A DNA stretch of 64,000 bases from an uncultured Clostridia bacterium (GTDB lineage Bacteria; Bacillota; Clostridia; Oscillospirales; CAG-272): assembly GCA_947627475.1 (NCBI GenBank), contig CANQWE010000001.1, positions 7,069-71,068 on the forward strand, written 5' to 3'. Below the pieces are notes generated by a model, which worked only from the letters and a program-made list of their open reading frames with translations, had not been told where the DNA came from and searched no databases. The stretch's first letter is position 1. Every line of letters starts with the position of its first letter. Shown here piece after piece: positions 44,391 through 60,778 of this stretch. A program made the position numbers and the translations under genes.

Positions 44391-46940
44391 CTAAAAAGCT
44401 GTTTGTGATTTCACTTCATGAAAGCTATCGCCCCATTCGCTGACCGCATAAAATTTATTATTTATGTATAAAAGTGCAGTTTGATTTAAAAACGGATGAC
44501 AGCCACTGTTGTAGGAAGGAATGATTACAGATCGAGTAAATAAATTTCGTAAATACAAAGATTTATCATTTGAATTTATATATAGAATACTCTTTTCATT
44601 ATGCCATGGGTTTGCAATTACCTGCATAATACAGTATTTTCCATTCACTGTTTTTCCCATATAAGTATATCCATTGCCATCCATTTGAATTGGTAATTTG
44701 CTGCGAATATAATGGATTTCTTCACTACCATCGCAGTTGTTGTCTACAATAATCAAGGCATTGTTTTGGTTTTTCTGCATTTCGTCTACAGCAATGACAG
44801 GATAATCTACAAGGATATTCGGATAATCGGTATTTGTTTTCGGATGTGAAAAAGTGTCGCAAACACGTTTTAACATATCGTCCTGCGTGTTACAATTGAC
44901 AATTCTCAAGGCTGTCATATATACATCTAACAAGCCTGTTCCTTTGTAGTGACAAATACTTTTACAAAAGTCTTCTGAAACAATAAATCCCCCTGTAAGT
45001 GTGTTTTTCAATATGACTTCATTGTCATAATATTTTTTAAAAGTCAATTTTTTATCATTTATTAAAATAAAAAAGTTTTCCCTGTCCAGTTGCGGGGGCA
45101 AAATTATTTTCAGCCCAGTGCAGTTTTTTGCTTGAATAATCATATTGTATCCTACAATTTCCAGAGCGACTTCTGCATAGGATGTTCCCTTTAAAATTGA
45201 CTCAATTTCAATATAATAAGCTTTTCTGCAACGATTTCTTTCCGTACGGTAATAAATTATATCAGGGTACGCGTTAAGCTCTTCAGACATAAGTAAATCA
45301 ATGGATCGTTTTGTATATTGTACCCTTTTTAGCTCTATATCCGCATTATAATACTTGTGGACAAAAAGAAAATGCAAATTTCTAAGAGCTTTTTCAAGTT
45401 GTTTTCTTTCCTTTAGAAATGGATCGTTTTCATTAATGGATGCAATCAAATGAAACCAACGAACATTATATAGATTATCTATATTGGGCCGATATGCGTT
45501 TGTCAATCTTGTATAGATACCGGCAAACAAATGCGGAAACGCCTGCACTAAATTTATTAAGGCAATGTTTCCGGCGCAATGGGAAATTGCATAAATCCTT
45601 TTTTTATTGATACGAAACCGATGCAATATGTCTTTGATTTCATTCAGCAAAAATGTTTCACCCATATAACTTCCTAAAGTACACCCCCGGCCTCCTATGT
45701 CGGCGCAAATAACATCATCTCTTTCTGCAAAATGATTGGAATAATTGGACTCCAATATTTCAGGAGGATAATCTGATATATATCCATGAGAAATGGTGAG
45801 CAGGAGTGAATACTCTTTTTCAGGATCAAAATTTTGCGGCAAAACGATATAGTATTGATAAAAATGTTTATCCTCATCGGAATAATAGCAATAAAAATGC
45901 TGTCCGGGGTGATATAAGTACTCCTGGATTTTGTTGTTTTGCACTGCGTAAAGAATCTTTTTTAAATTGCTCCCATAATAAGTATCTGTGTCAACGGTTT
46001 TTAATTTGTCAATATAATAGTGAATTTCATTTTTTATAAGTTCGGGGATATTATTCCTTTTAAGCAGTTCCTTTGCTTGTTCTTGTAGTTCTCTTAAATA
46101 GTCCGGAGCAGCATAGTACCGAAAAAGCGGTATGGATTTACAAGATACCTGTCCGCAAGTGTCTTCTGCATAAAAAAATGCATAGAGCAGATTGTACTTA
46201 TCTTCCTCCATATTAGGCAAAAAGGAAAGATCTATTTTATATTCCTTTTGAAAACTTAACTTTGCTTCAAACAGTATTTTACCGGTTTTTTCGCTTTTTA
46301 TAAGCATCTTGATTTTCGAATTGTAGTCAAAATGGATCAAGTCCAGGGGGATCAGCGAAAATGCAAAGATTTTATCTTCCTGAATAAAAATGGATTGTAC
46401 ATTGATAAGAAAATCCTTTGGTTTAAACCAGTAATTTTGATCCGTCAGAGACAACAGCGAACCGCAGGATTTATTTATGCTTTCTATTCTGACTGTAGGA
46501 ACCGTTTGACAATAGGAAAGCAAAACACCATATTCAATACAAAATATATTATATCCTTTATTCAATGTAACAGTATACAACATGTTTTCATGGCCAATAA
46601 ATACAATTTTTCCGTTGAGCCAATGTCTGAATTTGTCGTTTTTATCTCCTGCTATCCGAGGAAAATATGTGATTTGCGTTTCTTCCTCTGCTTCGACAAT
46701 AAAAAAATGTACATATTTTCTATAAAACCCATGTGGTGTTTCCTCATTTCCTGAAGCGTTGTGTATTTCCGTTTCCATACGGTAGCCTTTACACAAATGC
46801 ATGATATATTCGATTTCAGGAATAGAGTTTTCGTAATAGTTATATTTTGTCCAATCGTACAGCTTTTTGGAAATTACGCCCATTTTATCCGGCATGATCG
46901 CTTTGTCCGTCAGTTTGTATGTAATATCCAGTAATTTCAT
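44391..46940 (-). CDS. Large cytoplasmic protein with central S9/esterase-like alpha/beta-hydrolase domain carrying Cys at the nucleophile elbow
   Basis: YYIVLPQNFDPEKEYSLLLTISHGY, ADIGGRGCTLGS, KKRIYAISHCAGNIALINLVQAFPHLFAGIY (Sm-x-Nu-x-Sm with Cys), downstream ENDPF and a His. ATG 46940 (MKLLDITYKL) is preferred over the track start at 46958. Confidence 0.5.
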   Translation of the reverse strand: MKLLDITYKLTDKAIMPDKMGVISKKLYDWTKYNYYENSIPEIEYIMHLCKGYRMETEIHNASGNEETPHGFYRKYVHFFIVEAEEETQITYFPRIAGDKNDKFRHWLNGKIVFIGHENMLYTVTLNKGYNIFCIEYGVLLSYCQTVPTVRIESINKSCGSLLSLTDQNYWFKPKDFLINVQSIFIQEDKIFAFSLIPLDLIHFDYNSKIKMLIKSEKTGKILFEAKLSFQKEYKIDLSFLPNMEEDKYNLLYAFFYAEDTCGQVSCKSIPLFRYYAAPDYLRELQEQAKELLKRNNIPELIKNEIHYYIDKLKTVDTDTYYGSNLKKILYAVQNNKIQEYLYHPGQHFYCYYSDEDKHFYQYYIVLPQNFDPEKEYSLLLTISHGYISDYPPEILESNYSNHFAERDDVICADIGGRGCTLGSYMGETFLLNEIKDILHRFRINKKRIYAISHCAGNIALINLVQAFPHLFAGIYTRLTNAYRPNIDNLYNVRWFHLIASINENDPFLKERKQLEKALRNLHFLFVHKYYNADIELKRVQYTKRSIDLLMSEELNAYPDIIYYRTERNRCRKAYYIEIESILKGTSYAEVALEIVGYNMIIQAKNCTGLKIILPPQLDRENFFILINDKKLTFKKYYDNEVILKNTLTGGFIVSEDFCKSICHYKGTGLLDVYMTALRIVNCNTQDDMLKRVCDTFSHPKTNTDYPNILVDYPVIAVDEMQKNQNNALIIVDNNCDGSEEIHYIRSKLPIQMDGNGYTYMGKTVNGKYCIMQVIANPWHNEKSILYINSNDKSLYLRNLFTRSVIIPSYNSGCHPFLNQTALLYINNKFYAVSEWGDSFHEVKSQTAF

Positions 46941-47059
46941 TGGTTTTATTCCTTTCAAAAGAATCTGCTTCGGATATTATTCTAAGGGGAAACTTGGGGC
47001 AAGCGCACGACAGCACAGGTCGCGTACTATCTCCCCAGTTTCAAATTTGCTTCGGACAA

Positions 47060-48865
47060 TTACTCTGATACCGGGGGAGCGGCGGCTTCCTGATATTTTT
47101 TTGCCTGGACCCGGAACATTTCAGCGTATTTACCATTCATCCGCATCAATTCTATATGTGCTCCGCATTCGACGATTTCACCGTTTTCCAAAACATATAT
47201 CCTATCCACATCCCGCGTCGTTGAGAGTCGATGGGAAATCGTGATAACCGTCTTTTCCTGTGCAAATGCCTGTACATTTTTGTTGATTTCATATTCAGCA
47301 ACAGGATCCATAGCAGAGGATGGTTCATCCATAATGATGATGTCATATGGACGGACGAGCACCCGCGCTATAGCAAGTTTTTGTGCTTCGCCGCCGGAAA
47401 GATTTATACCTGTATCATCAAATTCTTTGGTCAGTCCGGTTTGTATCCCGCGAGGCAGGTTTTTTAATCTGTCGCTGAATGTACACAATTCCAGCGCCTT
47501 AATAATCGAAGCCTTTTCCTCTCCATCGTAACTGTCGCGCAGGACATTTTCTGCGATGGAAGTGGCAAAGATCTGAAAATCCTGCAGTACCACGCCAAAA
47601 CGGGATTGGTAGGACCTGCATGCATATTTCCTGATATCCATTCCATTATAAAGGATCTTTCCCTCCACCGGGTCATAAAGATGCAGCAACAGCTTAATCA
47701 GGGTGGTTTTGCCTGCGCCGTTATATCCTACCAGCGCGATTTTTTCCCCGCGTTTTATAGAAAAGTCAATATGGCGCAGAACTGGTTTATTTACAGCGTA
47801 ACCAAAAGAGACATTTTGCAGGGTCAGCGACTCGAAGGGCTCTGGCACCATAGCATCCTCCGGGGAGGAGACGGTATACTCCATAAACGCGCGCAGCTTT
47901 TTTATATAAATACCATGCTCCGGAAGCTTTACAAGCTTGTCCACAATATCCTGCAGACACCATCTGAGCGCCCAAAAAGACGACAAGGCCACTGCAAGTC
48001 CAGAAATCGACACGGTATTGGAAATCATAATTTGATACAGCAAAATGATGTAAATAAAAGGTTCCACAGCACTTGTAAGTATTTTGCCTGCCATAACATT
48101 TATGCAGTTTTTTTTCAAATACTTCTCTTCAACCTCCCGAATCTGTTCAAGCGTTTCCCTATGTTTGTCCCAGATCAGTTCGTTTACGTGGCTGATTCTG
48201 ACCTCCTTTGCAGTATCCGGAAGGGAATAGATCCTCTCATAGTAGCTTATTTTCCGATTTTTAGGCGTTGTTTCCAATGCACTTTGTAATTGAATCTTTG
48301 CGCTGGCTTTTTGTATAAACAACGAAAGAATACTTGCGGCGACAGCTGCCAGACTCAGTGCCGGACTGATGGAAAAAAAGAGCGTTACAATCGTAATAAA
48401 ACTCGTAGATGATAAGATAATAGCCGACAAGGTTTCCATAAGCCCAACGGCACGGGTATCACTTTGACTGACAGACCAGACAAAATTGTCATAAAACTCT
48501 GTATCATCGTAACTGGAGATGGGGATGCTTTTGGAGATCTCAAACAGCTCTGTATGCATTCGATATTCCAGTACCTGCCTTTTGCAGCGGCGCGTCACAT
48601 TGTAGTAGTACTGCTTAATGATTTGAAAAATGACAATAAAAGCAAAGATTCCTGCAATGCCCCCAAGAGCAGTGATAAACGACGCGTTGTTATTGATATA
48701 GTCATAAAATACCTTGATGAACAACACCTGAACAGAGTTATTGAGACCCTCCAACACACCGAAAATCAGTTCCCATATGAGCAGTCCGGGAGTGAATTTC
48801 CAAATGAGCCGAAGCATGAACCAGTCGTTTTTCAAGTTTTCCAAACGATCTCGCTTCTTTTTCAA
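47060..48865 (-). CDS. ABC exporter, fused permease/ATPase (heterodimer partner 2)
   Basis: 6 TM N-terminal half. GYNGAGKTTL, LSGGEAQKLAIAR, IIIMDEPSSAMD. ATGA overlap with the upstream ABC gene. No N-terminal peptidase domain. Confidence 0.85.
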   Translation of the reverse strand: MKKKRDRLENLKNDWFMLRLIWKFTPGLLIWELIFGVLEGLNNSVQVLFIKVFYDYINNNASFITALGGIAGIFAFIVIFQIIKQYYYNVTRRCKRQVLEYRMHTELFEISKSIPISSYDDTEFYDNFVWSVSQSDTRAVGLMETLSAIILSSTSFITIVTLFFSISPALSLAAVAASILSLFIQKASAKIQLQSALETTPKNRKISYYERIYSLPDTAKEVRISHVNELIWDKHRETLEQIREVEEKYLKKNCINVMAGKILTSAVEPFIYIILLYQIMISNTVSISGLAVALSSFWALRWCLQDIVDKLVKLPEHGIYIKKLRAFMEYTVSSPEDAMVPEPFESLTLQNVSFGYAVNKPVLRHIDFSIKRGEKIALVGYNGAGKTTLIKLLLHLYDPVEGKILYNGMDIRKYACRSYQSRFGVVLQDFQIFATSIAENVLRDSYDGEEKASIIKALELCTFSDRLKNLPRGIQTGLTKEFDDTGINLSGGEAQKLAIARVLVRPYDIIIMDEPSSAMDPVAEYEINKNVQAFAQEKTVITISHRLSTTRDVDRIYVLENGEIVECGAHIELMRMNGKYAEMFRVQAKKYQEAAAPPVSE

Positions 48866-50673
48866 GTGTCATCGCCCCCTTTGATATAGTTTTCTGCCTG
48901 GATACGAAACAACTTTGCATATTCTCCGTTTTTGTCCATGAGTTCCTTGTGATTGCCGGATTCTAAGATCCGTCCGTTTTCCAGCAAATAAATCCTGTCT
49001 GCCAATGTTGCGGAGGACAAACGGTGTGAAATCAGGATCATGGTGCGATTGCGGCAGGCTTTGATCATATTTTCGTACATTTCATACTCTGCGATGGGAT
49101 CTAAGGCAGAGGAAGGCTCGTCCAATATAACAACAGGGCAATCCTTTGCATACACATGGGAAATCGCCAGCTTCTGATTTTGACCTCCGGACAGGATTTC
49201 CCCCTCATTGTCAAATTCACGGTCGAGCACTGTATGTATGCCGGATGGCATTTGCCTGACACGATTATACAATCCGCTTTTTTGCAGCGCGTCAATTACG
49301 ATCGGATCGTCATCGTCCTGCGGCCGCCTAAGCAGTACATTTTCCTTGACAGTCATGGAGAAGTGGCGATAATCCTGCAGCACGGTAGCAAAAAGATCAT
49401 GGTATGTAGACAAACGATACTTCTTAATATCCCTGCCGTTGAGTTCAATGACGCCTTCTGACGGATCATATAAACGGAGAAGCAGTTTGATCAGCGTAGT
49501 TTTTCCCGCTCCGTTGTGCCCTACGATCGCAATCTTTTCTCCCTCGCGGATACGGAGAGAAATATCCTTTAGTATGTATTCGTTGTGTTCTCCATGATAT
49601 TTAAAGGAGACATGCTTGAGCGAAATATCCCCGGCCTTTGCAGAGGGTGCTTCCATATCTTCTCGGATCCCCTGCTGATACTCCATAAATTGTCTTAAAT
49701 TATTTATATACAGAGAATGCGAATACATTTGTGCGATGCTGGCATTCAGAGTGTCAATGCTTGCGCTTACCCGCGCCACTGTATTGATCAGCACAAGACA
49801 GTCTCCATAAAGCATTCGTTTTGTTCCCAGCGTTTGCCATGCAGCATACGCAAACAGAAGAGAATGAGATAAAAAGGTACTGGCAACAATGATCAGCAAC
49901 TCCCAGAAAGCCAGACGTACGCCCTTGGAACGATATATGCGAATAATTTCATCGGCTGCCTCTTTGTACTGCCTTAAAATGACCTTAGAAATATTAGACA
50001 GGCGCAATTCGGCTGCGTAATCCCGTAGATAAAATGTTCTTACAGTATATTGCTTTTTTCGCTCGGCACTTGTTTTGGATTGGTCCAAGTCAAAACTCAA
50101 ATAGTTTTTTTTCTTCCGGATTTTATTTACAAGAAAGGGGAAAAAAGCAAATATCAGTACCAGCGGATCGATCAGGCACGCAAGGATGCCGCTCCCCACC
50201 AAGGAAATTCCGGCGTTGATGACCGTAATGGAACTATTGAATACTGCGTCTACACGACCGGAGCATTCGGCCATCGCACGGGTATATGTATTATAATACT
50301 CCGGGTCCTCGTAGCAAAACAGCTCACATTCAGCCATCTTTTTCAGGGACATTGTTTTCATTTTGCGATGGATCGTATATGTAAAATACGGCTGTAGCTT
50401 GACATCCACGCAGGATGTCACGATGTGATAAACCACATAAATCAAAAACAGGATACACAGAAACTTGACAGCGTCAAAATAATTTCCGCCGGTTTGTGCG
50501 ATGTTTACCGCATAGCGAAGGAAATACAGGTTGACCAGACCCAGCAAAGTATCAAGAACTGTAATAAGCGTCGTATATAATATTTTCCACGGACACGCCT
50601 TCCATAAAAGCCTCAGCATATAAAAATTGTTGGACAGCGCCTTCAGAAAGGACTCTTTGTTTTTCTTTTTCAT
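48862..50673 (-). CDS. ABC exporter, fused permease/ATPase (heterodimer partner 1)
   Basis: GHNGAGKTTL, LSGGQNQKLAISH, VVILDEPSSALD. Start ATG 50673 (MKKKNKE) or GTG 50685. Confidence 0.85.
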   Translation of the reverse strand: MKKKNKESFLKALSNNFYMLRLLWKACPWKILYTTLITVLDTLLGLVNLYFLRYAVNIAQTGGNYFDAVKFLCILFLIYVVYHIVTSCVDVKLQPYFTYTIHRKMKTMSLKKMAECELFCYEDPEYYNTYTRAMAECSGRVDAVFNSSITVINAGISLVGSGILACLIDPLVLIFAFFPFLVNKIRKKKNYLSFDLDQSKTSAERKKQYTVRTFYLRDYAAELRLSNISKVILRQYKEAADEIIRIYRSKGVRLAFWELLIIVASTFLSHSLLFAYAAWQTLGTKRMLYGDCLVLINTVARVSASIDTLNASIAQMYSHSLYINNLRQFMEYQQGIREDMEAPSAKAGDISLKHVSFKYHGEHNEYILKDISLRIREGEKIAIVGHNGAGKTTLIKLLLRLYDPSEGVIELNGRDIKKYRLSTYHDLFATVLQDYRHFSMTVKENVLLRRPQDDDDPIVIDALQKSGLYNRVRQMPSGIHTVLDREFDNEGEILSGGQNQKLAISHVYAKDCPVVILDEPSSALDPIAEYEMYENMIKACRNRTMILISHRLSSATLADRIYLLENGRILESGNHKELMDKNGEYAKLFRIQAENYIKGGDDT

Positions 50674-50771
50674 AGACGTCCCCACTTCTCAGATTTTTCT
50701 ATAATTTCCCCGTAAAAATGATTTTTGTAAGCCAATATTAATAAAAATTTATATTGATTCAGGTGGCAGGA

Positions 50772-51590
50772 TCATTTATAGTCGTCACTATAGGCGATCC
50801 AGCGTCGCGGCAGTTTGAATCCGCCTCCGGTTTGTAATTCCATATTATTCAGCAATATGGAATTACAGCACCCCAAAGTATAAATATGCAGTATATCACC
50901 CTGAAAAGCGGTACAGACAGGGGGCAGCGCCTCATATGGCTCCATAGAGAAATACGAAAATTTCAGACCGGCGGTTTGCTGGATCCTGCAGTGATACCGT
51001 GCAAAATTTAAAAGCATTTTAGTCATAAAACAAATTCCAGTATAAAGCTGTGCAGAACAGTATTCCTTAATGTCTCCGTTTTCAATCGGCACATATGGTG
51101 CATTTGTATGTATCTGTGTGGTCAGATCAATAATATAATAATGCTGATTGGTATATATGTAGTTCATGGTATGCCCCGACCCATCCGGACGGATATATTG
51201 GATATATCCCCTGTCGGGATAACGATTCTGAATAACATAGTTGAACCACGCAGCCGCGGATGCACAGCACCCCTCTCCGGTTTCCACAGCATATTTACCG
51301 GATTTGTGCATCTCCCAGGTTCTCTCGCCCGCTTGAAAATAAACGATATCGTTTGTTTCTTCAAACAGGCGAACACACTGAAACAGTTGGATCGCTTCAT
51401 ATGCATTGAATCCCAGCGACCGTATTTTATCCGCCGGTTTTCGCGCAGTCAATGCATATATTTCCTCGTTTGTAAAACGGCTGCTTCCCAAAACATTCAC
51501 GGGGACCCAAAACAAATCTTTTGCAATTTGTGTTTTAAAATCTGCCCCATGCCGCAAATTGATGGTATCATACGAAGTGTGAAGGTACAT
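50772..51590 (-). CDS. Hypothetical Cys-His-Asp protein, transglutaminase/papain-like fold (peptidase or acyltransferase)
   Basis: GEGCCASAAAWFNYV ... GSGHTMNYIYTNQHYYIIDLT has the spacing of a transglutaminase-core C...H...D triad. AGGGAGGG SD before ATG 51590; alternative ATG 51611 abuts the upstream stop. Confidence 0.45.
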   Translation of the reverse strand: MYLHTSYDTINLRHGADFKTQIAKDLFWVPVNVLGSSRFTNEEIYALTARKPADKIRSLGFNAYEAIQLFQCVRLFEETNDIVYFQAGERTWEMHKSGKYAVETGEGCCASAAAWFNYVIQNRYPDRGYIQYIRPDGSGHTMNYIYTNQHYYIIDLTTQIHTNAPYVPIENGDIKEYCSAQLYTGICFMTKMLLNFARYHCRIQQTAGLKFSYFSMEPYEALPPVCTAFQGDILHIYTLGCCNSILLNNMELQTGGGFKLPRRWIAYSDDYK

Positions 51591-51611
51591 AAGCCCTCCC
51601 TTTCTGTACAT

Positions 51612-53420
51612 TTAATCACAGAAAAAGTTGATACAATCTTCAAAAAGGCGCCGGTCATCGTCATCATTGCCCAAAATATAAGCTGGCTTTCCGGTCGCTC
51701 CGGTAACCGTCTTACAAAACCTTTTCAGATCGGATGCGGGTATTTCTTTTTTTACCATGCTCATCGCGCTCCATTCATTTGGAAATCCTATCGGAAACAC
51801 TTCGAATGCAATAACATGGCAATCTGCCAGGGATTCCACAAAAGCGGCCGATCTTTTGATCATATCTATAGAATCGTGGGGATTGATGCAAAGTATTGCC
51901 GCGTCAGGATTTGCTCCAAGCAAAAACTCCGTGGAAGCGATGTTATAGGTAGACAAATTGTCAAAGGAAAGGGTAGCGACGCCGGATTGCGCACCTGCCA
52001 AAATGATATCCGGTTCTTGGATATCCAGCTGATGCATCAAATAATTTACGTGTTCAATGCCAAAATGTCCACTTATATCCACCGTTCCGTCATAGCCGTA
52101 TGGATAAACGGCCTCCATGCCGAAAAGGCCGCCTTCCGGCTCACTGGACAGTTGACCAATTTCGTAACCGTTTTCCAAAAATAATTCTCTCAGTTTCAGC
52201 TGTAAGGAAAACTTCCCCTGTTGGCTGGAGGTTCCTACAACAGCCAGTACTGGAGAAAACACCTCATATAATTTCCCAAATTTATTAGAGGACTGTTGGG
52301 TTCGGTTTATAACGGGAACATAAATTTTCTTTTTCCTTTCAGCAGATAATGCACTTACATAATCGGTATCAAAGGATACAATGTTGATATTGTTTTTTAT
52401 ACATGCATCTATTATCCTCTGCTTATAATCAACAAAAACCTTTATAGACAATTCATTTACATGTCCGATAATAAAAGTGTCTATTCCCTCCAAATCGATA
52501 TTTTCAATATTTTCAATCGTACAGCACAGATCCCTGCGACTGTTAAATACCGTCTTTCCCACATGTCCAGAGAATCTGCTGTCATAAAGCCGTTCAATCG
52601 TAAACGGCAGCAAATGCGCAAATCGAATCAGGCTTTGCGTTTCTTTGTTGTAAGGAAAAACGGCGGCCATACGGATGTCAAACAGATCTGTTTTATATTC
52701 CGGACTTTTGTCATTAAAAGATACAACCTTGCTTGCATTTTCTTTTAATACCGGCAAAATGTTTTTATAATCTACTCCATGATCAAGCAACGTGCAGATT
52801 TTTGCTGTCAAAACAGGCGCCACAAAACTGTTTCCCCTCACTATAGCATACTCTGGACCCGTCCAGGCTACTCTTTGAGGAGATGCCATCATTCCAATAT
52901 TTATTAGGCTATTTTCCACATAGATATATTCCTGAAAGCTATTTAGCTGCATTGTAGAATCAACGCCGATTACACAAGGATAAGCAGCAGGATAAGAAAT
53001 GGCTCCCATATTGCAAAACGCTGAAACGATCATGACTCCGCTACGGTAAAGCTGATCGCATATTTCCTCAAGTTCAGGCAAATGCTTTCGAATGCCGGCG
53101 CTAATATTTATAATCTGACAAGCGAGCGAATCATTGTGGGTATAAATATATCGCAGCGCGTCAATCAACACCTCCGGTTCAGCCTCCTCATTGCTCCCTT
53201 CTATAATTTTGAAAGAGGTGATTTTAACATTTTTTTCATTTTTATATAAAACATGAGCAACAGCTGTTCCGTGACCATTTTGTATATTGTTCTGCCGCGT
53301 TACCTGCCAGCCTGTGCCATCATCAAGATAGGAATATTCCGTTATATCTGCATTGGATAGCCCTTTATGCTGCGTATCTACACCTGAATCCAGGATTGCC
53401 ACATGAACGATATTTTTCAT
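51612..53420 (-). CDS. Cytoplasmic S8 subtilisin-like peptidase fused to a C-terminal P-loop (DUF1611-like / 'peptide maturation system' type) domain
   Basis: VAILDSGVD (Asp), NGHGTAVAHV (His), NISAG (oxyanion Asn), GNSFVAPVLTA (Ser). No signal peptide. The C-terminal half has VLAVVGTSSQQGKFSLQLKL, which is P-loop-like. Confidence 0.7.
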   Translation of the reverse strand: MKNIVHVAILDSGVDTQHKGLSNADITEYSYLDDGTGWQVTRQNNIQNGHGTAVAHVLYKNEKNVKITSFKIIEGSNEEAEPEVLIDALRYIYTHNDSLACQIINISAGIRKHLPELEEICDQLYRSGVMIVSAFCNMGAISYPAAYPCVIGVDSTMQLNSFQEYIYVENSLINIGMMASPQRVAWTGPEYAIVRGNSFVAPVLTAKICTLLDHGVDYKNILPVLKENASKVVSFNDKSPEYKTDLFDIRMAAVFPYNKETQSLIRFAHLLPFTIERLYDSRFSGHVGKTVFNSRRDLCCTIENIENIDLEGIDTFIIGHVNELSIKVFVDYKQRIIDACIKNNINIVSFDTDYVSALSAERKKKIYVPVINRTQQSSNKFGKLYEVFSPVLAVVGTSSQQGKFSLQLKLRELFLENGYEIGQLSSEPEGGLFGMEAVYPYGYDGTVDISGHFGIEHVNYLMHQLDIQEPDIILAGAQSGVATLSFDNLSTYNIASTEFLLGANPDAAILCINPHDSIDMIKRSAAFVESLADCHVIAFEVFPIGFPNEWSAMSMVKKEIPASDLKRFCKTVTGATGKPAYILGNDDDDRRLFEDCINFFCD

Positions 53421-53448
53421 AAAGCTTGCCTCTTTAATTGTTTGTATG

Positions 53449-53493
53449 TTTTTTTGAACAGTGAAAGGATTCCCCTTTCACTGTTCAAAAAAA
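53449..53493 (-). promoter_or_regulatory. Perfect 20-bp stem-loop immediately downstream of the candidate precursor ORF (partial terminator / mRNA stabiliser)
   Basis: tttttttgaacagtgaaagg-attcc-cctttcactgttcaaaaaaa. It begins 3 nt after the precursor stop codon. There is no 3' U-tract on the operon strand. Confidence 0.6.
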
Positions 53494-53495
53494 CA

Positions 53496-53606
53496 TTACC
53501 ACTTAAGCCCGCACATAGCGAAACTTGCTATACCTGAACAAGATTCAAAGCTGTAGGTCATTACCTTTACACGCTTGGCGCATGGCTTTCTAAGCTGCTT
53601 TTTCAT
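53496..53606 (-). CDS. Candidate RiPP precursor peptide (36 aa): MKKQLRKPCAKRVKVMTYSFESCSGIASFAMCGLKW
   Basis: Near-perfect SD AAGGAGGTGA 7 nt before ATG 53606. It has 3 Cys and a basic N-terminus, sits between the ACP-like and protease genes, and has hairpins on both sides. The same frame is open up to ATG 53744 (82 aa, ATGA overlap with the upstream gene), so the start is ambiguous. Confidence 0.55.
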   Translation of the reverse strand: MKKQLRKPCAKRVKVMTYSFESCSGIASFAMCGLKW

Positions 53607-53740
53607 GATTTCACCTCCTTTTATGTAATTATAAGAAGGGTGCAATGCCGCTGCATAGCCATTTAAATGGAGTACGAACGCATACGCAGCCCCTTCAAAT
53701 GGCCTTGCGGCATTTTCCCCGTCTTTACACAGCAAAGCGA

Positions 53741-53986
53741 TCATTCCTTCTTCAGCATCTCAACTACATCGCACACATTGCCGATGTTGCGCATCCTCCC
53801 CTGCAGTAAATATTCATCTGGGATTTCGATATCAAATGTGCTTTCAACTTCGACGATAAAGGAAATATACGTGATGGAATTATCCAAGTAGTCAAGAATA
53901 TCCACCGTATCGTCATCGTCTACAACAAAGCCCAGACTATTAAAGCATTCGATTACCTTTTTTCGTGTATCTTCCACCTGTTTCAC
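53741..53986 (-). CDS. Acyl-carrier-protein-related small protein (81 aa)
   Basis: LDYLDNSITYISFIVEVESTFDIEIPDEYL aligns by eye with the ACP helix II region ([25 protein letters not shown]). Ser is retained but preceded by Asn. The start abuts the stop of the SPASM gene. Confidence 0.6.
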   Translation of the reverse strand: MKQVEDTRKKVIECFNSLGFVVDDDDTVDILDYLDNSITYISFIVEVESTFDIEIPDEYLLQGRMRNIGNVCDVVEMLKKE

Positions 53987-55306
53987 CTACAATTCTATAA
54001 AACTATCTTTATTCATTTTATATAGAACTTTTAACACATCATTTAAATATGCATATTCACGACCGCAATTCAACTGCGCCGGATCCATGGGATTTTTATT
54101 GAAAAACAAGAGATTGCGTACACAGCTTTTTCCCTTGCAGATAGAATAGTCGGTACAACTTTTGCATCCCTCAATTGCCTTCGCGGACAAGGAATACCAG
54201 TAAGCGGCCTTGTACTCATCTATTTCCAGCTTTCCATTTATTAGTTTACCGATAGGATATTCCTGCAGCTGGGGACACAAAAATACATCTCCCAGAGTGT
54301 TTACCGTATATGTGTTTTTTTGTGCATATGAGCAAATTGCGTGAGACAGCTGTCCTTGCAAGGCACTCATATTCAGCTGCCAGTCTCCTTCTGCTAATGT
54401 CGCATAGACGTCTGACATAGAATCGATTAGCTTTCCACGCATTGCATTTATGCGGTCGCCTCCCCAATCGTAAACCGGACTGAATAGATAGGTAAAGCGG
54501 TTGTCTTTTCCAAACTCCTCCTGCACAAACGACAAATAGTCATGTAAGTTCTCTAAGACATCTGTCGTTATATTGGTCCGCAGTACGATGCGAAATTGCT
54601 GAGATTTTACATGATCACGGATACAGCGCAGATTTTCAATGATTTTATGGAATGTTCCCCCACCGTTTTTCAGCGGCCTGCTAACGTTATGCGTTTTTGC
54701 AGTTCCGTCAATCGTTATAATATACTCAAAAACTCTATACCGCAAAAGCCTTTTAAATGTTTCGTAGTCCAGCAGATAACCGTTTGTGGTAATAGAGGCA
54801 GAATACCGCCTCGATGTTTTTCTGCAGATATCGATAAATGCCTCAGATAAGGTATACAACGAATCCCTTGCTAAAAGAGGCTCTCCCCCAAACCAGGCAA
54901 CATTCATTTCGGTATATTGGCCGATGTTCCTTTTGGCATACGTAATGAGGTCCTGTATAACACTTTCTTTTATATGGGATCTTTGAAAGTCGTCAAAACA
55001 ATACTGACAACCAAAATTGCAGCTTTCTGACGTCAATATTGTAAAATGCAGCGAACTGCTATTGATGATTTTTTCATGTAAATCATCCCCTTGTATGCTT
55101 TCGTCTATAGAAGCGGGCACTACAAATCCATGGTCCCTTAACCTGCCCATCATTTTTTCCGGAACTGTATCAATACTAAGCGGTAAATTGCGAAGGGATA
55201 TTGGCTGCAAATATCCCATTGTATTTCGCAGCTTATTATAAAGCAAAAGCGTTTCCGTTTTGTCTATGTATGTGTAGTGATTAAACTTTGAAAACTTCAA
55301 TTCCAT
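53987..55306 (-). CDS. Radical SAM / SPASM-domain peptide maturase
   Basis: SESCNFGCQYCF (CX3CX2C). The C-terminus has CSYAQKNTYTVNTLGDVFLC (CX13GX4C), CKSCTDYSICKGKSC and a further Cys, consistent with auxiliary Fe-S clusters. Confidence 0.85.
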   Translation of the reverse strand: MELKFSKFNHYTYIDKTETLLLYNKLRNTMGYLQPISLRNLPLSIDTVPEKMMGRLRDHGFVVPASIDESIQGDDLHEKIINSSSLHFTILTSESCNFGCQYCFDDFQRSHIKESVIQDLITYAKRNIGQYTEMNVAWFGGEPLLARDSLYTLSEAFIDICRKTSRRYSASITTNGYLLDYETFKRLLRYRVFEYIITIDGTAKTHNVSRPLKNGGGTFHKIIENLRCIRDHVKSQQFRIVLRTNITTDVLENLHDYLSFVQEEFGKDNRFTYLFSPVYDWGGDRINAMRGKLIDSMSDVYATLAEGDWQLNMSALQGQLSHAICSYAQKNTYTVNTLGDVFLCPQLQEYPIGKLINGKLEIDEYKAAYWYSLSAKAIEGCKSCTDYSICKGKSCVRNLLFFNKNPMDPAQLNCGREYAYLNDVLKVLYKMNKDSFIEL

Positions 55307-55307
55307 T

Positions 55308-56849
55308 TTATCGCCTGCCCGTTTTATTTGCCAAATACTGCAAATATCTTTTATCCTTGGACAATTTCCTCATGACAACCTGTATATCGCTGTAACACTT
55401 TCGGATAAGTGGATTATATTTCTTCATTATTTTATGTACGTCGGTTTCTGTAAAAATCAGTTCAAAAAACATTTCAAATTTTATATCGCGTAAATCTTTT
55501 ATAATGGGCCGGGTTGCTTTCTGAAAGTTGTGGACCGCCCCCTCGTCATACACATTCATTACACTCAAAAAACAAGATCGAAAATCAAGATATATTGCTT
55601 CTTCCGTGTAATACTGGGATAACCGGTTTGCCGCGCCAAGTCTTTCAGCAATATGACCAGCATCCGGATGCAAATAATTGTAGTCAAAGGTGTTCAGGTA
55701 AGAAAAGGTATCCTTTAGCAGTCCCATGTTTTCTGTTCTGGTATACATTTCGGAGCCATAATTGACTGAAAGCCGTGTATTAAAATGGTAATCGTAGAAG
55801 AAACCATACTTTTTTGAAAATGTATAATTTGTTTGAATGGATTCTACCGTGCTAAGCGGATTCAAGTTTATAAATCCACAATCGATATAAAAATCATTCT
55901 TTAAAAGCAGTTCTAAAGTCGCAATATTCTCATCCTTTGAAACACGTTTGTTATAATAAATCAAATCATTGTCATCAAAAGACTCGATTCCCAGCAGTAC
56001 AAATAAAAATCCCGATTCTTTCATTTTTTTGAGCAAGGGCTGATCTTTCTCCGTAAAGCCTTTTACTCTCGTATTAAAATTTATCGTAAATTTTTGTGGA
56101 TACTGTAATAATAAATCACAAAACGCATCGATTCGTTGTTTCCCGATAGTACCTGGGCTTTCAAATGCACTATCATTTATTAGGAAAGCAATAATTCCAT
56201 ATCGTTCATACGTATGGACTATTTCTTCAAAAACATCTTGTATATTTCTCCCACGCCATACGATCCTCTTTTTGTTCAGACAATAATTTTGGGTACAAAA
56301 ATGGCACCGGCCTATACAGCCCCGCGCTGCTTCTATTTTAACAATTGGCAGATTTTTGAGGTATTTGTCTTGCAGCAATACATGATCCACCACATGGTAA
56401 TGTTTCATGTTGAAAACATATTGCTTTTTTAGGGACAAATCATCGCCATTTCTGTATATATAATTTCCATTTTCTATACCACCTAAATAATCTATGATTG
56501 GTATTTCATAATCCCCCAAAACAATAAAATCGATTTCCGGACAATCTTCCAATATTTTTTCTGCACACAATGTTGCAAAAGAACCTACGAGAAAAACTTT
56601 GATTTTTTTCTCAATATTTTTGATTTTTCTTACCAGTGAATAGATAAACGGAACGGTCGCTGCGTCAGAATTAAAACATAAATGGGAATACTTGCAGAAA
56701 TCTTCAATAGCAATGCTGCCTTCATGGTCAAATGCTGCGTTCAGAGACACAATATGAACAGTACATATTTCTGTCAACATGGAATACAAATGCTCCAGAT
56801 GAACATCCTCTTTTATAACTTTGTTATAAACGTTTGCCAATAATACCAT
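55308..56849 (-). CDS. B12-binding-domain radical SAM enzyme (class B, methyltransferase-like)
   Basis: The N-terminal Rossmann-like segment KVFLVGSFATLCAEKILEDCPEIDFIVLGDYEIPIIDYL, then EAARGCIGRCHFCTQ (CX3CX2C). Confidence 0.8.
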   Translation of the reverse strand: MVLLANVYNKVIKEDVHLEHLYSMLTEICTVHIVSLNAAFDHEGSIAIEDFCKYSHLCFNSDAATVPFIYSLVRKIKNIEKKIKVFLVGSFATLCAEKILEDCPEIDFIVLGDYEIPIIDYLGGIENGNYIYRNGDDLSLKKQYVFNMKHYHVVDHVLLQDKYLKNLPIVKIEAARGCIGRCHFCTQNYCLNKKRIVWRGRNIQDVFEEIVHTYERYGIIAFLINDSAFESPGTIGKQRIDAFCDLLLQYPQKFTINFNTRVKGFTEKDQPLLKKMKESGFLFVLLGIESFDDNDLIYYNKRVSKDENIATLELLLKNDFYIDCGFINLNPLSTVESIQTNYTFSKKYGFFYDYHFNTRLSVNYGSEMYTRTENMGLLKDTFSYLNTFDYNYLHPDAGHIAERLGAANRLSQYYTEEAIYLDFRSCFLSVMNVYDEGAVHNFQKATRPIIKDLRDIKFEMFFELIFTETDVHKIMKKYNPLIRKCYSDIQVVMRKLSKDKRYLQYLANKTGRR

Positions 56850-57102
56850 TCCTGTACATCACTTTCTGAATGTATTTTTTAAATAGTCCATTGCAAGCAC
56901 GTTTATGACTATATCTGTCCTTTATCTACAAAAAGCAAATATGTTCGTAAGTCAACAGCCCATACCGCCGCAGCAGATATACACATTACAAAACATGTGG
57001 AAGGGGGGCATACTGAACATACGTTTGCAAAGAACCGCTGGATTTCAAGATACCGAAAAATGACGTCTTAGATAAATTTTATAAGAATTATAACTTTGTT
57101 TT

Positions 57103-57131
57103 ATTTTAACATTCTCTGTTTTAATTGTCAA
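57103..57131 (-). promoter_or_regulatory. Sigma-A type promoter of the peptide-maturation operon
   Basis: Minus strand TTGACA (57131-57126), 17 nt, TAAAAT (57108-57103). It lies ~250 nt upstream of the first gene. Confidence 0.5.
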
Positions 57132-57610
57132 TATATTCCATAAAAAAAGTTTAACGCTGTTATAAATTTAGAAAAAATGATGAAAAAAAAAAACATAATG
57201 TAAATATTTTATATTCCATCTATTAACTGATGCAGGAGCGGAGACGTAAATATTTACAAATTCGCTGTCTGTGGTGCTGTAAAATTACACTTGAAAATGA
57301 AAAACTGTTGAAAGCCTTTGTATGATAAGCACCTGCAAATGGTTTAAATCCAGTCGCTTCTATTCCGGGCAGAGCATGGATCCAAGCGCTTCGGAGTTTT
57401 TTAAGACATCCGCCTCTTCGGACAGACTGCTTATGCGTTGAACATATGCAAACATGCAACAGAACAGATGCGGTAGGACAGTGCTTCCCGGATGGAACAA
57501 TTGATTCAGCGAATCATCAGCTGACGGAAAAGAGGCCCTGTGGCCTCTTTTCCTAAGTTTCTGATTCTGAAAAGGGTAAAAAAGAGTAAAAGGCCATTTT
57601 TGCAAAATAA

Positions 57611-57640
57611 AAAGTCCTGTAAACACTAAGTTTACAGGAC
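57611..57640 (-). terminator. Intrinsic terminator after tRNA-Trp
   Basis: Minus strand gtcctgtaaac-ttag-tgtttacaggac followed by TTTTTATTTT. Confidence 0.8.
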
Positions 57641-57647
57641 TTCCATC

Positions 57648-57723
57648 TGGCAGGGGCACAAAGACTCGAACTCTGGACACGTGGTTTTGGAGACCACTGC
57701 TCTACCAACTGAGCTATACCCCT
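57648..57723 (-). tRNA. tRNA-Trp (anticodon CCA), CCA end encoded
   Basis: Minus strand AGGGGTATAGCTCAGTTGGTAGAGCAGTGGTCTCCAAAACCACGTGTCCAGAGTTCGAGTCTTTGTGCCCCTGCCA. Cloverleaf folded by hand: 7-bp acceptor, D arm GCTC/GAGC, anticodon stem GTGGT/ACCAC with loop CTCCAAA, T arm CAGAG/CTTTG with TTCGAGT. Confidence 0.95.
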
Positions 57724-57836: not shown

Positions 57837-59252
57837 TTACTGTAAATAAGGGATCACCTTTGGAATATCCCCCGCTCCCATTATGAGAAACATATCTTTT
57901 TCGCTGCCGTGCTCGTTGAGGTATGCCGCAATATCCTGAAATTGTGCAATAAACCGGCAGGGTACTCCCTTTTGTACAATGGCGTCGGAAAGGCGCTCAG
58001 CGCTGACGCCGTATGTGTTTACTTCCCGGGCAGAATAAATGGGAGCCAGTACGATTTCTCCCTGCTGCATGTTTGAAAGCGCGTCTGTAAAGGCGTGGAA
58101 CAGCCGACTGGTTCTGGAATAGGTATGGGGCTGAAATACGCAGAAGATCCGGTCATACCCCATCTGTGCCGCGGCAGACAGGCTGGCTGCAATTTCTGTC
58201 GGATGGTGGGCGTAGTCGGAATAGATGGCCGCGCCGCATCTTGCCGCGCCGCAAAGCTCCATCCGCCGGCCCAGACCCTGGAAGGAGGCGAGAGCCTGGG
58301 ATATATCCTTTCCGGATATGCCGCACAGATGGGCTGCCGCCGCTGCGGCAAGGGCATCGCACACAGCATGGGCGCCGGGCACATGCAGAGACACACTACA
58401 CAAGGGCGTTTTCTTGTGGCGGATGGTGAACCGCGCGCACCCTTTTTGGAAGGATATGGAGTCCGCGCAGTAGTCTGCCTCCGACTCTTCCACCCCAAAA
58501 GTAACTAGCTTTCCGGTATAACCCTGGGCGGCCCGCATAACATCGTCGTCGCAGCAATTTACAAGCGCGATTCCACTGGGACCGGTTCGTTTCAGGAATT
58601 TATGAAAAGAGGCGTGGATTTGTTCCATAGAATGGAAGTAATCCACATGGTCCATTTCAATATTCAAAATAATGGCGATCGTGGGATAAAAGTCCAAAAA
58701 AGAATCCATATATTCACAGGCTTCAAAAATAAAGTATTCCTCTCCCCCGATCCTGTGTGTGCTGTTCTGACTCATCATTCGGGCGCCGCAGCTTACGGTA
58801 GGATCCAGTCCCGCGTCGGAAAATACCTTTTCCAGCATCGATGTGGTGGTGGATTTTCCATGCATGCCGCTGACGCCGATCCGGCAGCCGTACCCGGACA
58901 TCAAATATCCAAGATAATCTGCTCTGGATACGCACGGTATTCCTGCACGCTGTGCCGCGGCATATTCCGGATTGTCCGCCGGCATAGCCACAGTATATAC
59001 CAGCATATGGCATCCTTCTACGTGTGCTGGGTCTGCTTCATAATATACTGTGATACCGCTCTCTGCAAGCTGGCGGGTGATATCGGAGGGTGTGCGGTCA
59101 TATCCGCTGACAATATGGCCCCGCAGCTGCGTCACCCGGGCAAGGGAGCACATACTGATGCCGCCGATGCCTGCAAAAAAAATTTTTTTCGCTCCCCCGG
59201 AGAGCATTTTCTCAATTGTATCAGCCCCCAAATGCGTGTTTTGTAATGCCAT
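57837..59252 (-). CDS. murC: UDP-N-acetylmuramate--L-alanine ligase
   Basis: IFFAGIGGISMCSLA, GVSGMHGKSTTTSM. ATG 59252 (MALQNTHLG) is preferred over the longer track ORF. Confidence 0.85.
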   Translation of the reverse strand: MALQNTHLGADTIEKMLSGGAKKIFFAGIGGISMCSLARVTQLRGHIVSGYDRTPSDITRQLAESGITVYYEADPAHVEGCHMLVYTVAMPADNPEYAAAQRAGIPCVSRADYLGYLMSGYGCRIGVSGMHGKSTTTSMLEKVFSDAGLDPTVSCGARMMSQNSTHRIGGEEYFIFEACEYMDSFLDFYPTIAIILNIEMDHVDYFHSMEQIHASFHKFLKRTGPSGIALVNCCDDDVMRAAQGYTGKLVTFGVEESEADYCADSISFQKGCARFTIRHKKTPLCSVSLHVPGAHAVCDALAAAAAAHLCGISGKDISQALASFQGLGRRMELCGAARCGAAIYSDYAHHPTEIAASLSAAAQMGYDRIFCVFQPHTYSRTSRLFHAFTDALSNMQQGEIVLAPIYSAREVNTYGVSAERLSDAIVQKGVPCRFIAQFQDIAAYLNEHGSEKDMFLIMGAGDIPKVIPYLQ

Positions 59253-59585
59253 ACGTTTTGACCATGCCTTTCTCTGCAATTGTGACAGTTTGCCGGCGGC
59301 GCATAAAGATGGGTTTGAAAAACAGGGTTTAGGCTGTTTTGACTTATAAACTCTCTGCCGTCGTTCGTTCACAAAATTCGCCAAAAATTTTAAATCAGAT
59401 TTTTCTTTTCTTTCACAGTATTATTATATCATTTCGCTTAGATTTGTGTTATAGTTATATTGTACCATAAATTGATGCAAATACAAAGCCCGGCGGTCAA
59501 ATTTTTTGGTACTGCGCATACTGTCAGAAAATCAGCGGATACTATGAACAGCAATTTCATTTAACATTATGAAAGGAAGGCTACT

Positions 59586-59906
59586 ATGAATATCACAGAC
59601 GTGAAAATTCGAAAACTGTTTGAAGACGGTCCAATGAAAGCAATTGCATCTGTCACTTTTGACGATCAGCTGGCCGTACATGACATCAAAGTGATTTATG
59701 CTCGCGAAAAGTATTTTATCGTCATGCCCAGCAGGAAAAATGCAGACGGCACCTTCCGGGACATTGTGCATCCCATCAACGGCGCATTCCGCGCTGAGCT
59801 GGAGACAGCGGTCATTCAGGCTTATGATGGGGCATTGGCCCTTGCGCAGGCAGAGGCCGCATCGGCAGACCACCCGCAGACAGAAGAAGACCCTGCGGGG
59901 GAATAA
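59586..59906 (+). CDS. spoVG: Septation / regulatory protein SpoVG
   Basis: MNITDVKIRKLFEDGPMKAIASVTFDDQLAVHDIKVIYAREKYFIVMPSRK is a canonical SpoVG N-terminus. Confidence 0.9.
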   Translation: MNITDVKIRKLFEDGPMKAIASVTFDDQLAVHDIKVIYAREKYFIVMPSRKNADGTFRDIVHPINGAFRAELETAVIQAYDGALALAQAEAASADHPQTEEDPAGE

Positions 59907-59929
59907 TAAAATTCCGCCGGGAATGAGGC

Positions 59930-59965
59930 AAAAACAAGGAGGCTGCATGCAGCCTCCTTGTTTTT
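59930..59965 (+). terminator. Intrinsic terminator after spoVG
   Basis: aaaaacaaggaggctgcatgcagcctccttgttttt. Confidence 0.85.
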
Positions 59966-59995
59966 GAGATTGGACCCATTTTGCTTCACGCGCCT

Positions 59996-60175
59996 TTACA
60001 GTTCGTCTCTTATATTGATTTCGCCGTGCTCTTTCTCATATTCCCGTATACATTTTTTACACAAATATTCTAAAAGATTGCTTGCACTTCTGGTTTCTGC
60101 TTTTGCAATAATTTTAACCTTACACAAAACGTCTTCGTCTAAGTGAAAGGTAAACGGCAATTTGTTTGTAGGCAT
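59996..60175 (-). CDS. Ribbon-helix-helix (Arc/CopG-like) small protein
   Basis: AAGGAGA SD before ATG 60175. MPTNKLPFTFHLDEDVLCKVKIIAKAETRSASNLLEYLCKKCIREYE. Confidence 0.5.
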   Translation of the reverse strand: MPTNKLPFTFHLDEDVLCKVKIIAKAETRSASNLLEYLCKKCIREYEKEHGEINIRDEL

Positions 60176-60487
60176 GTTCCAGTCTCCTTTTACACTTCCC
60201 AGTAACATCTGTCTTATAGTGTAAATGATTTGCTGAATTATTTATACGCCAACAGTTATGAATATATACAATAACAGTTACATAAAAATTTCAAAAAATA
60301 TGCACTTATAGTAGTGCTTTCTGTCGGAAATGAAAAACAAAAGGCGAATAAACTGTTAAATCTGACGCATAGGGAGAAAATGGAACAGTAAGTAGAAAAA
60401 TTTACCTGTAAGCTGTATATCTGCATATAGAAAGGCAATACTACCGGAGAAACAGCGGGAAAATACTCCGGGAAAGGACGGGATCGT

Positions 60488-60778
60488 ATGATCAAAGGAT
60501 GCCAGAAGAAAATCATCCATATCACCAACACAGGCAGCCCGTATTTTGAAGAAGCCTATTTAATTTTGCGCCGGGGCGGCGATTTTTCCGACGGAGAAGA
60601 TGCAGGGGAGATGGATATGGTGCAGGAAGCAGTTAAAATTGCTGAAGGGGGCAGTGCAGCCTTATCTCCCAGACGGGAAAGAAAACGCAAACGACGCAAT
60701 CAGGCTTTTTTTTGTGGGATTTGTCTTTGCTCCTTTTTATTTGGTCTTGTGATGCTGATCTGCTCTCTGATCGGATGA
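60488..60778 (+). CDS. Hypothetical small protein with a C-terminal TM anchor
   Basis: 96-aa ORF with a basic stretch RRERKRKRRNQ followed by FFCGICLCSFLFGLVMLICSLI. No family recognised. Confidence 0.4.
   Translation: MIKGCQKKIIHITNTGSPYFEEAYLILRRGGDFSDGEDAGEMDMVQEAVKIAEGGSAALSPRRERKRKRRNQAFFCGICLCSFLFGLVMLICSLIG

Follow-up and report, generated by a model that had tools for sequence, protein, structure and literature searches.

An acyl carrier protein-like family as a core component of a radical SAM peptide maturation module

The subject of this study is a small acidic protein related to acyl carrier proteins (ACPs), hereafter the ACP-like protein, which is encoded in a 64,000-nucleotide stretch of DNA—the window—from an uncultured Clostridia bacterium (GenBank assembly GCA_947627475.1, contig CANQWE010000001.1, positions 7,069 to 71,068). 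Its gene belongs to a cassette of the type producing ribosomally synthesized and post-translationally modified peptides (RiPPs), where it is situated between the genes of a radical S-adenosylmethionine (rSAM)/SPASM maturase and a candidate precursor peptide. Judged from sequence profiles and from a structural model, the protein has a carrier-protein fold, the likeness going well beyond chance, and the gene arrangement met in other genomes identifies it as a core component of a radical SAM RiPP maturation module. Concerning its role, the reading favoured here—a holo carrier, primed by the housekeeping phosphopantetheinyl transferase (PPTase) of the cell and working with the P-loop domain fused to the peptidase of the module—is, taken as a whole, given a little less than an even chance. 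A preliminary description of the window had already placed an ACP-related protein in a RiPP-type cassette, and this has been borne out by the profile search of the PDB, by an AlphaFold 2 (AF2) model compared using Foldseek, and by the gene context.

The ACP-like gene and its product

53741..53986, minus strand: gene of the ACP-like small acidic protein, 81 aa if started from the GTG at 53986, translation MKQVEDTRKKVIECFNSLGFVVDDDDTVDILDYLDNSITYISFIVEVESTFDIEIPDEYLLQGRMRNIGNVCDVVEMLKKE

The open reading frame (ORF) at 53741-53986 encodes a genuine conserved protein, since homologues sharing 35-75% identity hold the same place in the same cluster. The ORF and its minus strand have remained as first described, but not its start; the second GTG, at 53977, with an AGGTGA Shine-Dalgarno sequence 5 nt upstream, is the likelier one and is also the start chosen in the public gene calls (P0001, 78 aa). 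The protein is thus probably 78 rather than 81 residues long; the numbering of the 81-aa form is kept here, Ser37 corresponding to Ser34 of the 78-aa form. The TAG stop codon of the upstream rSAM/SPASM gene directly abuts the first GTG. The product is acidic (computed pI 4.06 and net charge of about -12.5) and contains the motif YLDNSITYISF, with Asn-Ser (N36-S37) in place of Asp-Ser, as had been recognized previously.

Carrier fold and conservation of the attachment serine

When the PDB was searched with a profile of 12 homologues, only ACPs were retrieved, with E-values down to 1.3e-5, and in the same alignment the D/N-S pair falls over the DSL attachment serine, and the FDIEIPDE stretch over the same motif of the ACPs of fatty acid synthases (FAS). 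The AF2 model, built from the homologue alignment, reaches a predicted local distance difference test (pLDDT) value of 84.8 and exhibits helices at residues 2-17, 37-51 and 68-80 plus a short turn, i.e. the topology of a carrier protein in a helical bundle of about 80 aa. The top 50 Foldseek matches in the PDB are all carrier proteins, in the holo or apo form, with template modelling (TM) scores of 0.55-0.76, covering the aminoacyl carrier protein 4h2w, the ACPs from H. pylori and other sources, DltC and peptidyl carrier proteins. With regard to curated families, the preliminary description had pointed to TIGR04069; its hidden Markov model (HMM) gives 25 bits, where 70 are required, with residues 43-75 alone aligned, and membership was therefore rejected, the protein being a relative of this family and not a member. 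The orthologue from the related locus L026 has a precomputed PP-binding match.

Ser37 is kept in all 12 close homologues, as is the stretch ISFIVE.E..F.IEIPDEYL. In the wider family (25-45% identity), the attachment serine is present in 157 of the 158 aligned proteins, the preceding residue in this alignment being Asp (133), Asn (12), Glu (7) or Ser (4). Metagenomic loci provided a further 43 unique ACP-like proteins adjoining the peptidase fusion genes described below; the 42 of them covering the site keep the serine without exception, preceded by Asp in 38 cases and by Asn and Glu in two cases each. On these alignments, the Asn-Ser of the window protein is a minority state of a family having mostly Asp-Ser (~85%), in the form D-S-(I/L), and not a feature of the family. 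A scaffold had been regarded as the better explanation should the serine vary among homologues; as the residue is invariant in about 200 divergent sequences, a carrier is favoured over a pure scaffold.

A conserved gene module in other genomes

The genes accompanying that of the ACP-like protein in the cassette of the window are as follows:

55308..56849, minus strand: B12-binding radical SAM enzyme (B12-rSAM), 513 aa, CIGRCHFC at residue 178, accessory
53987..55306, minus strand: radical SAM/SPASM peptide maturase, 439 aa, CNFGCQYC at residue 96, C-terminal CX2CX5CX4C at 381-395
53496..53606, minus strand: candidate precursor peptide, 36 aa, MKKQLRKPCAKRVKVMTYSFESCSGIASFAMCGLKW, with an AGGAGG site upstream and homologous short peptides at the same place in related loci
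52686..53420, minus strand: subtilisin-like S8 peptidase domain, residues 1-245 of a 602-aa fusion, D11, H50, S198 and N137 present, best NCBIfam match QhpE
51612..52685, minus strand: TIGR04066-like/DUF1611-like domain (T4066), residues 246-602 of the fusion, P-loop GTSSQQGKF(S/T) at residue 396
50772..51611, minus strand: p279, Cys-His-Asp protein, no family match in Pfam or NCBIfam
48862-50685 and 47060-48865, minus strand: two ABC transporter permease/ATPase genes, presumed exporter

Homologues of the ACP-like protein at 35-75% identity are always found within a module of rSAM/SPASM, ACP-like protein, short Cys peptide and S8-T4066 fusion, and the order rSAM/SPASM, ACP-like, precursor, S8-T4066 is seen in 11 independent lineages, Sutcliffiella (Bacilli) and Treponema among them; the place of the ACP-like gene between the rSAM and precursor genes is kept across phyla at 30-45% identity. 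The divergent loci L024 (Sutcliffiella), L025 (Treponema) and L026 share this gene order, each with an ACP-like protein carrying a DS motif; L027 is a degenerate locus, in which the rSAM gene is truncated and the ACP-like gene is missing. The search with a T4066-domain profile yielded 306 protein clusters, nearly all of about 600 aa, and among the matches listed—from Clostridia, Treponema/Spirochaetes and Bacilli—most T4066 clusters were matched by both S8 and DUF1611. In a metagenomic sample of 80 loci retrieved by the T4066 profile, the domain is fused to S8 in 77; where at least 6 kb of upstream flank is available (30 loci), the ACP-like gene is present in 26, with the rSAM gene adjacent too in 25. 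In most of the metagenomic loci, the ACP-like frame begins no more than some tens of bases away from the rSAM stop codon, and in the window, L004, L024 and L025 the two genes abut or overlap, which suggests that the ACP-like protein is produced together with the rSAM enzyme, maybe in one complex.

Nearly every related locus thus contains the rSAM, ACP-like, precursor and S8-T4066 genes, with ABC transporter genes in most; the ACP-like protein is a core component of the radical SAM RiPP maturation module. The B12-rSAM, probably a C-methyltransferase-type accessory, is sporadic among these loci, and p279-like genes occur in only 6 of the 64 related metagenomic loci having enough downstream sequence. 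The preliminary description had linked the ACP-like protein mainly to this 279-aa Cys-His-Asp protein, which has to be downgraded as a main partner because of that rarity; the cassette context that it described holds, but the constant partners—the rSAM/SPASM enzyme and the fused DUF1611/TIGR04066-like domain—had not been singled out.

The co-occurrence data also bear on the idea that the gene is a stray or decaying copy of a FAS ACP carried on the island without contributing to the maturation of the peptide. FDIEIPDE is a typical FAS ACP motif and the island is foreign DNA by its GC content, both in keeping with such an origin; the strictly conserved place between the rSAM and precursor genes across phyla, at 30-45% identity, and the existence of an own family of 266 representatives, distinct from the AcpP models, nevertheless make it scarcely credible, and co-occurrence effectively refutes it.

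Some related cassettes are adjoined by genes for AgrB, a LytTR response regulator and a histidine kinase (L004/L005, 6903-7490; L026, 1-2489), a neighbourhood that suggests quorum-sensing control in some lineages.

The ACP-like family and its distant relatives

A word-indexed search returned 12 relatives of the ACP-like protein, and an exhaustive HMM search 266 cluster representatives at E<1e-10 and 1854 at E<1e-3. In a scan of 146 representatives, the match to TIGR04069 was never better than E 1.1e-6, most of them matching generic ACP models weakly. By their sequences, the ACP-like proteins are a separate family outside the current curated models and distinct from the AcpP models.

Relatives at E ~1e-8 were found outside the T4066 clusters. 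An FkbH-domain gene directly follows the ACP-like gene in L014, L015, L017, L021 and L022 (TIGR01686 at 209-248 bits against a cutoff of 147), and in L020 the next gene encodes a PaaK-like adenylate-forming ligase; L017 and L018 contain, in addition, an ORF of ~2470 aa, which is probably a nonribosomal peptide synthetase (NRPS). Because distant relatives adjoin dedicated loaders, i.e. FkbH or an adenylating ligase, the family descends from true carriers.

Several further arrangements were observed in this family. A recurring cluster in L014, L019, L021 and L023 combines the ACP-like gene with those of an FkbH-domain protein (confirmed by the scan for L014 and L021 alone), an NTP_transf_5 nucleotidyltransferase and ABC transporters; some of these loci also encode proteins faintly matching BtrH_N, a B12-rSAM or an HprK-related kinase. 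The precursor with the KP leader was not found in these four loci, and the cluster may represent another carrier-dependent peptide or small-molecule pathway. Four members (P0124, P0127, P0143 and P0156) bear a charged C-terminal extension of ~40-70 aa with the look of a coiled coil. In P0054, the ACP-like protein reads through into a precursor with the KKP leader, and in P0086 an rSAM N-terminus (CNFRCGYC) is joined to an ACP-like C-terminus; both are probably artefacts of frameshift or deletion, yet they bear out for further lineages that the genes follow each other as rSAM, ACP-like and precursor.

Precursors, the T4066 domain and p279

The candidate precursors form one family, characterized by a basic leader MKK.L[KR]KP, a junction (A/L)Y..E and a Cys-containing core; its members are encoded in the window (53496-53606, minus strand) and in L001, L004, L011-L013, L016 and L024-L026, and their leaders contain 5-8 Lys/Arg among the first 15 residues. 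The peptide of the window has a basic leader with L-R-K-P, a Cys in the core and a C-terminal Trp, the last being a minority feature present also in 4 of the 38 candidate precursors of one set and in several others elsewhere. The rSAM/SPASM enzyme scores under every NCBIfam family cutoff, the best being TIGR04463 (176 bits, cutoff 525), with TIGR04068 (CcpM) at 74 bits (cutoff 500). By analogy, the precursor family together with the QhpE-like protease and the QhpD-like rSAM enzyme recalls the Cys-to-Glu/Asp thioethers of the gamma subunit of quinohemoprotein amine dehydrogenase (QHNDH). In L013, two precursor genes occur in tandem (10296-10623, plus strand).

As far as the T4066 domain is concerned, it reaches 74 bits with TIGR04066 (cutoff 200) and passes the Pfam threshold for DUF1611 (33.7 bits, cutoff 25). 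All eight aligned members match TIGR04066 below the cutoff (74-76 bits for the window domain), and their alignment reveals an invariant GT..QGKF P-loop plus the invariant motifs E-P, Q-S and P-D...C.N..D. A profile of the domain found the DUF1611 structure 2g0t in the PDB at E 2e-4, P-loop on P-loop; a PDB search with the single sequence gave nothing useful. The signature GT(D/S)xxxGK is that of the dethiobiotin synthetase (DTBS)/CobQ type, enzymes that activate carboxyl groups with ATP, and DgcN, a protein of the DUF1611 family, is an acetyl-CoA-dependent N-acetyltransferase. A second, stand-alone T4066 homologue is present in L013 (2900-3970, minus strand), next to an ABC transporter.

In the alignment of p279 homologues, C115/C116 and D162 are invariant and H147 nearly so. 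Its AF2 model has a pLDDT of 87, and the Foldseek matches, weak as they are (TM 0.2-0.3), are all transglutaminase-like cysteine proteases (CPR-C4, PNGase, LapG, vasohibin and TglA), which does not separate the role of a protease from that of an acyltransferase; no match in Pfam, NCBIfam or PADLOC was obtained even at E up to 10. The protein has a transglutaminase-like/papain-like core and is an accessory of the sub-clade of the window only. The idea of a BtrH-like ACP-dependent acyltransferase was abandoned, as the faint sub-threshold BtrH_N matches are confined to proteins of distant loci (L014 and L025), with none in p279.

These components allow the carrier to be thought of as a covalent tether of the peptide itself: the P-loop domain would activate a carboxylate of the precursor with ATP—either that of the conserved Glu beside the first Cys or that of the C-terminal residue, a Trp in the window peptide—and join the precursor as a thioester to the phosphopantetheine arm, for presentation to the rSAM enzyme or for release by cyclization or transfer, in which p279 could be involved in the sub-clade of the window. 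We consider this quite improbable. The resemblance of the P-loop (GT..xxGK) to the carboxylate-activating DTBS/CobQ type is consistent with it, as are the (A/L)Y..E junction shared by the precursors before the Cys core, the C-terminal Trp of some of them, the tight packing of the adjacent rSAM and ACP-like genes, and the Cys-His-Asp core of p279, such cores occurring in acyl and peptidyl transferases. Against it, p279 is missing from most related loci, and the precursors of the family differ in their C-terminal residue; moreover, we know of no precedent for a peptidyl-S-ACP intermediate in RiPP maturation.

Possible role of the ACP-like protein

According to the favoured reading, Ser37 would be phosphopantetheinylated by the housekeeping PPTase of the cell, none being encoded in the island, and the holo protein would bear a thioester-bound group made or used by the DUF1611/TIGR04066-like P-loop domain. 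The latter would either load the carrier using ATP or pass a carrier-bound acyl group on to the peptide, and it would do so at or just after leader removal, e.g. on the newly freed amine, as its fusion to the protease suggests. The T4066 domain is the candidate loader or unloader by elimination, since it is the only conserved non-rSAM enzyme of the module. A carrier is favoured because of the invariant serine, the descent from carriers paired with loaders and the fixed presence in the module; we infer that Ser37 is in the holo state and that the P-loop domain is its partner. Lipidation of the peptide would be only one possibility.

Several observations weigh against this reading. The PP-binding threshold of Pfam (PF00550) is missed (18.7 bits against the gathering value of 20.8, E 0.0021), and the best of the NCBIfam ACP models gives E 3e-6 and 27 bits with cutoffs of ~70. 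In the window protein, Asn replaces the Asp before the serine, and capping of helix II, at whose N-terminus the serine stands, could in part account for the retention of this residue. Compared with that of FAS ACPs, helix II (SITYISFIVEVE) has a more hydrophobic sequence and is unusually conserved, which would also be in keeping with a fixed protein-protein interface. Pfam and NCBIfam revealed no PPTase, ketosynthase or acyl-ACP synthetase among the island ORFs, in agreement with the preliminary description, and phmmer with Sfp and AcpS (approximate query sequences) found no match among all the ORFs of the window; Pfam and NCBIfam likewise gave no adenylating enzyme, FkbH, acyltransferase/GCN5-related N-acetyltransferase (GNAT) or thioesterase in the island. 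The catalytic activity assigned to the DUF1611-like domain is drawn by analogy with the enzymes mentioned above, DgcN in particular, and neither the acyl donor nor the acceptor has a nameable candidate. Finally, the searchable literature on TIGR04066, TIGR04068, TIGR04069, CcpM, DUF1611 and DgcN offers annotation-level mentions only, with no experiments found on TIGR04066- or TIGR04069-type proteins; the preliminary description had likewise taken the function to be uncharacterized. Pfam and NCBIfam also detected no class II aminoacyl-tRNA synthetase-like ligase in the island.

Part of this evidence would equally fit a non-covalent adaptor or chaperone, in which an apo ACP fold, with neither cofactor nor cargo, bridges the rSAM/SPASM enzyme and the S8-T4066 fusion or holds the basic leader (MKK.LKKP...) by its acidic surface. 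This appears possible but rather doubtful. The abutting or overlapping rSAM and ACP-like genes of the window, L004, L024 and L025 would suggest a stoichiometric complex, helix II, the loop and helix III are unusually conserved (YISFIVELE.xFDIEIPDEYL being invariant among the close homologues), as expected of a fixed interface, and both the sub-threshold PP-binding score and the lack of a PPTase or loader in the island (Pfam, NCBIfam and the phmmer probe) point the same way. The charge of -12.5, facing leaders with 5-8 Lys/Arg in their first 15 residues, is a less specific argument because all ACPs are acidic. On the other hand, an attachment serine invariant in about 200 sequences, with Asp, Asn or Glu before it, is hard to explain unless some chemistry takes place there, and distant members of the family are paired with dedicated loaders.

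Returning to the holo carrier, its most specific form would be that the ACP-like protein and T4066 carry out an undescribed thiotemplated RiPP step, in which an ATP-dependent enzyme of the DTBS/CobQ type, instead of an adenylating enzyme, FkbH or GNAT, loads or unloads the carrier, either acylating the peptide at leader removal or holding it as a thioester for the rSAM enzyme; in this precise shape, the proposal is speculative and, at present, unlikely.

The island and its surroundings

The cassette lies in an island (44000-57723) with 34-47% GC (about 40%), the adjacent sequence having 52-55% and the left flank 51%. The island ends beside a tRNA-Trp gene (57648-57723, minus strand), and the low GC together with this gene points to a horizontal acquisition at a tRNA site. 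Of the named organisms, Fumia xinanensis, Oscillospiraceae, has the most closely related cluster. The remaining features of the island and of its right flank, where the housekeeping genes (57837-62869) were recognized by eye from their translations, are the following:

44391..46958, minus strand: p855, 855 aa, at the low-GC end of the island, no match in Pfam, NCBIfam or PADLOC
57103..57131, minus strand: promoter-like site, TTGACA, 17 nt spacer, TG-TAAAAT, 11 of 12 consensus matches, upstream of the first gene of the cassette
57837-59384, minus strand: MurC-like ligase, by eye
59586-59906, plus strand: SpoVG, by eye
61208-62869, plus strand: RNase J-like protein, by eye

A promoter and terminator scan of the cassette gave counts at or under the shuffled expectation, the site at 57103-57131 being the single strong promoter-like one reported. 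Among the loci searched, p855 is seen only in the near-identical island copies L006-L008; its residues 351-435 show a weak similarity (E 1.5e-4) to the S9 alpha/beta-hydrolase part of DPP4. DPP4 is a post-proline peptidase, and the precursor leaders carry a conserved Lys-Pro. A reading of the cassette as a defence system was rejected, PADLOC having given no meaningful match.

Significance

Carrier proteins are a hallmark of thiotemplated chemistry—that of FAS, polyketide synthases (PKS) and NRPS—and RiPP pathways normally do without them. The general pairing of ACP-related and TIGR04066 proteins has already been catalogued in TIGRFAMs/NCBIfam, and the presence of an ACP-related protein in such cassettes is not new. 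What emerges here is an ACP fold with an invariant serine as a fixed part of a large cross-phylum family of radical SAM Cys-peptide clusters, along with a P-loop domain fused to the leader peptidase. If the role of the ACP-like protein were solved, a function would be given to TIGR04066, TIGR04069 and part of DUF1611, genome miners would learn which extra modification to expect on these peptides, and a novel mode of carrier-protein loading or use might come to light. Should the thiotemplated step prove true, it would be the first function for the TIGR04066/TIGR04069 pair and for the S8-DUF1611 fusions (306 protein clusters). The cluster of the window, with its single 36-aa precursor, represents a compact test case.

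Comparison with known systems

With the bacterial ACPs (PF00550; AcpP, DltC and the aminoacyl carrier proteins 4h2w and 6bug), the ACP-like protein of the window shares the fold, the aligned serine, helix II and the FDIEIPDE loop; it differs from them in the Asn before the serine, in scoring below the Pfam threshold, in the more hydrophobic helix II and in lying in an island with no FAS, PKS, NRPS or Dlt partner nearby. The D-alanyl and aminoacyl carrier proteins (DltC and the Atu2571 type) have their own adenylating ligase, whereas none is present in the island, the similarity being at the level of fold only. Similarly, glyceryl carrier proteins loaded by FkbH are accompanied by the adjacent FkbH (HAD-IIIC) loader, while the NCBIfam scan found none in the window.

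ACP-dependent lipidation is established in goadvionins, lipolanthines and selidamides, the clusters of which contain genes for FAS or PKS enzymes together with that of a GNAT acyltransferase. The concept shared with the window would be a carrier-bound acyl group delivered to a ribosomal peptide; in contrast, the island contains no FAS, PKS or GNAT, and the candidate transferase is the DUF1611-like P-loop domain.

Concerning the maturation of QHNDH by QhpD and QhpE, the S8 domain of the window has QhpE as its best match (E 1.2e-26), the rSAM enzyme also matches QhpD (E 1.6e-13), and the gamma subunit, like the window precursor, is a small Cys-rich peptide with Glu and Trp. The scores, however, all fail to reach the family cutoffs, the maturation of QHNDH is not known to involve an ACP-like or DUF1611-like protein, and the product of the window is probably exported by the ABC transporters. 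DUF1611/DgcN (2g0t) resembles the T4066 domain in that the Pfam DUF1611 threshold is passed and the P-loops align, although the similarity is distant (E 2e-4) and the domain of the window is fused to a protease.

The closest parallel is the TIGR04065-TIGR04069 "peptide maturation system" (CLI_3235/CcpM), the canonical clusters of which combine TIGR04066, TIGR04069, TIGR04068 and a subtilase (PMC4573289, PMC10731318). As in the window, an rSAM/SPASM maturase, a TIGR04066-type protein, an ACP-related protein, a subtilase, ABC export and a short Cys-rich precursor occur together (PMC4573289, PMC10731318), and the canonical clusters represent an independent pairing of an ACP-related protein with a T4066 protein. 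The ACP-like protein, T4066 and the rSAM enzyme of the window are detectably related to TIGR04069, TIGR04066 and TIGR04068, respectively, although far under the cutoffs (25/70, 74-76/200 and 74/500 bits, respectively). The window also differs in the fusion of T4066 to the subtilase, in the place of the ACP-like gene directly after that of the rSAM enzyme, and in the addition of p279 and the B12-rSAM. In the searchable literature, the system is known from annotation alone; the cluster of the window is a divergent branch of it.

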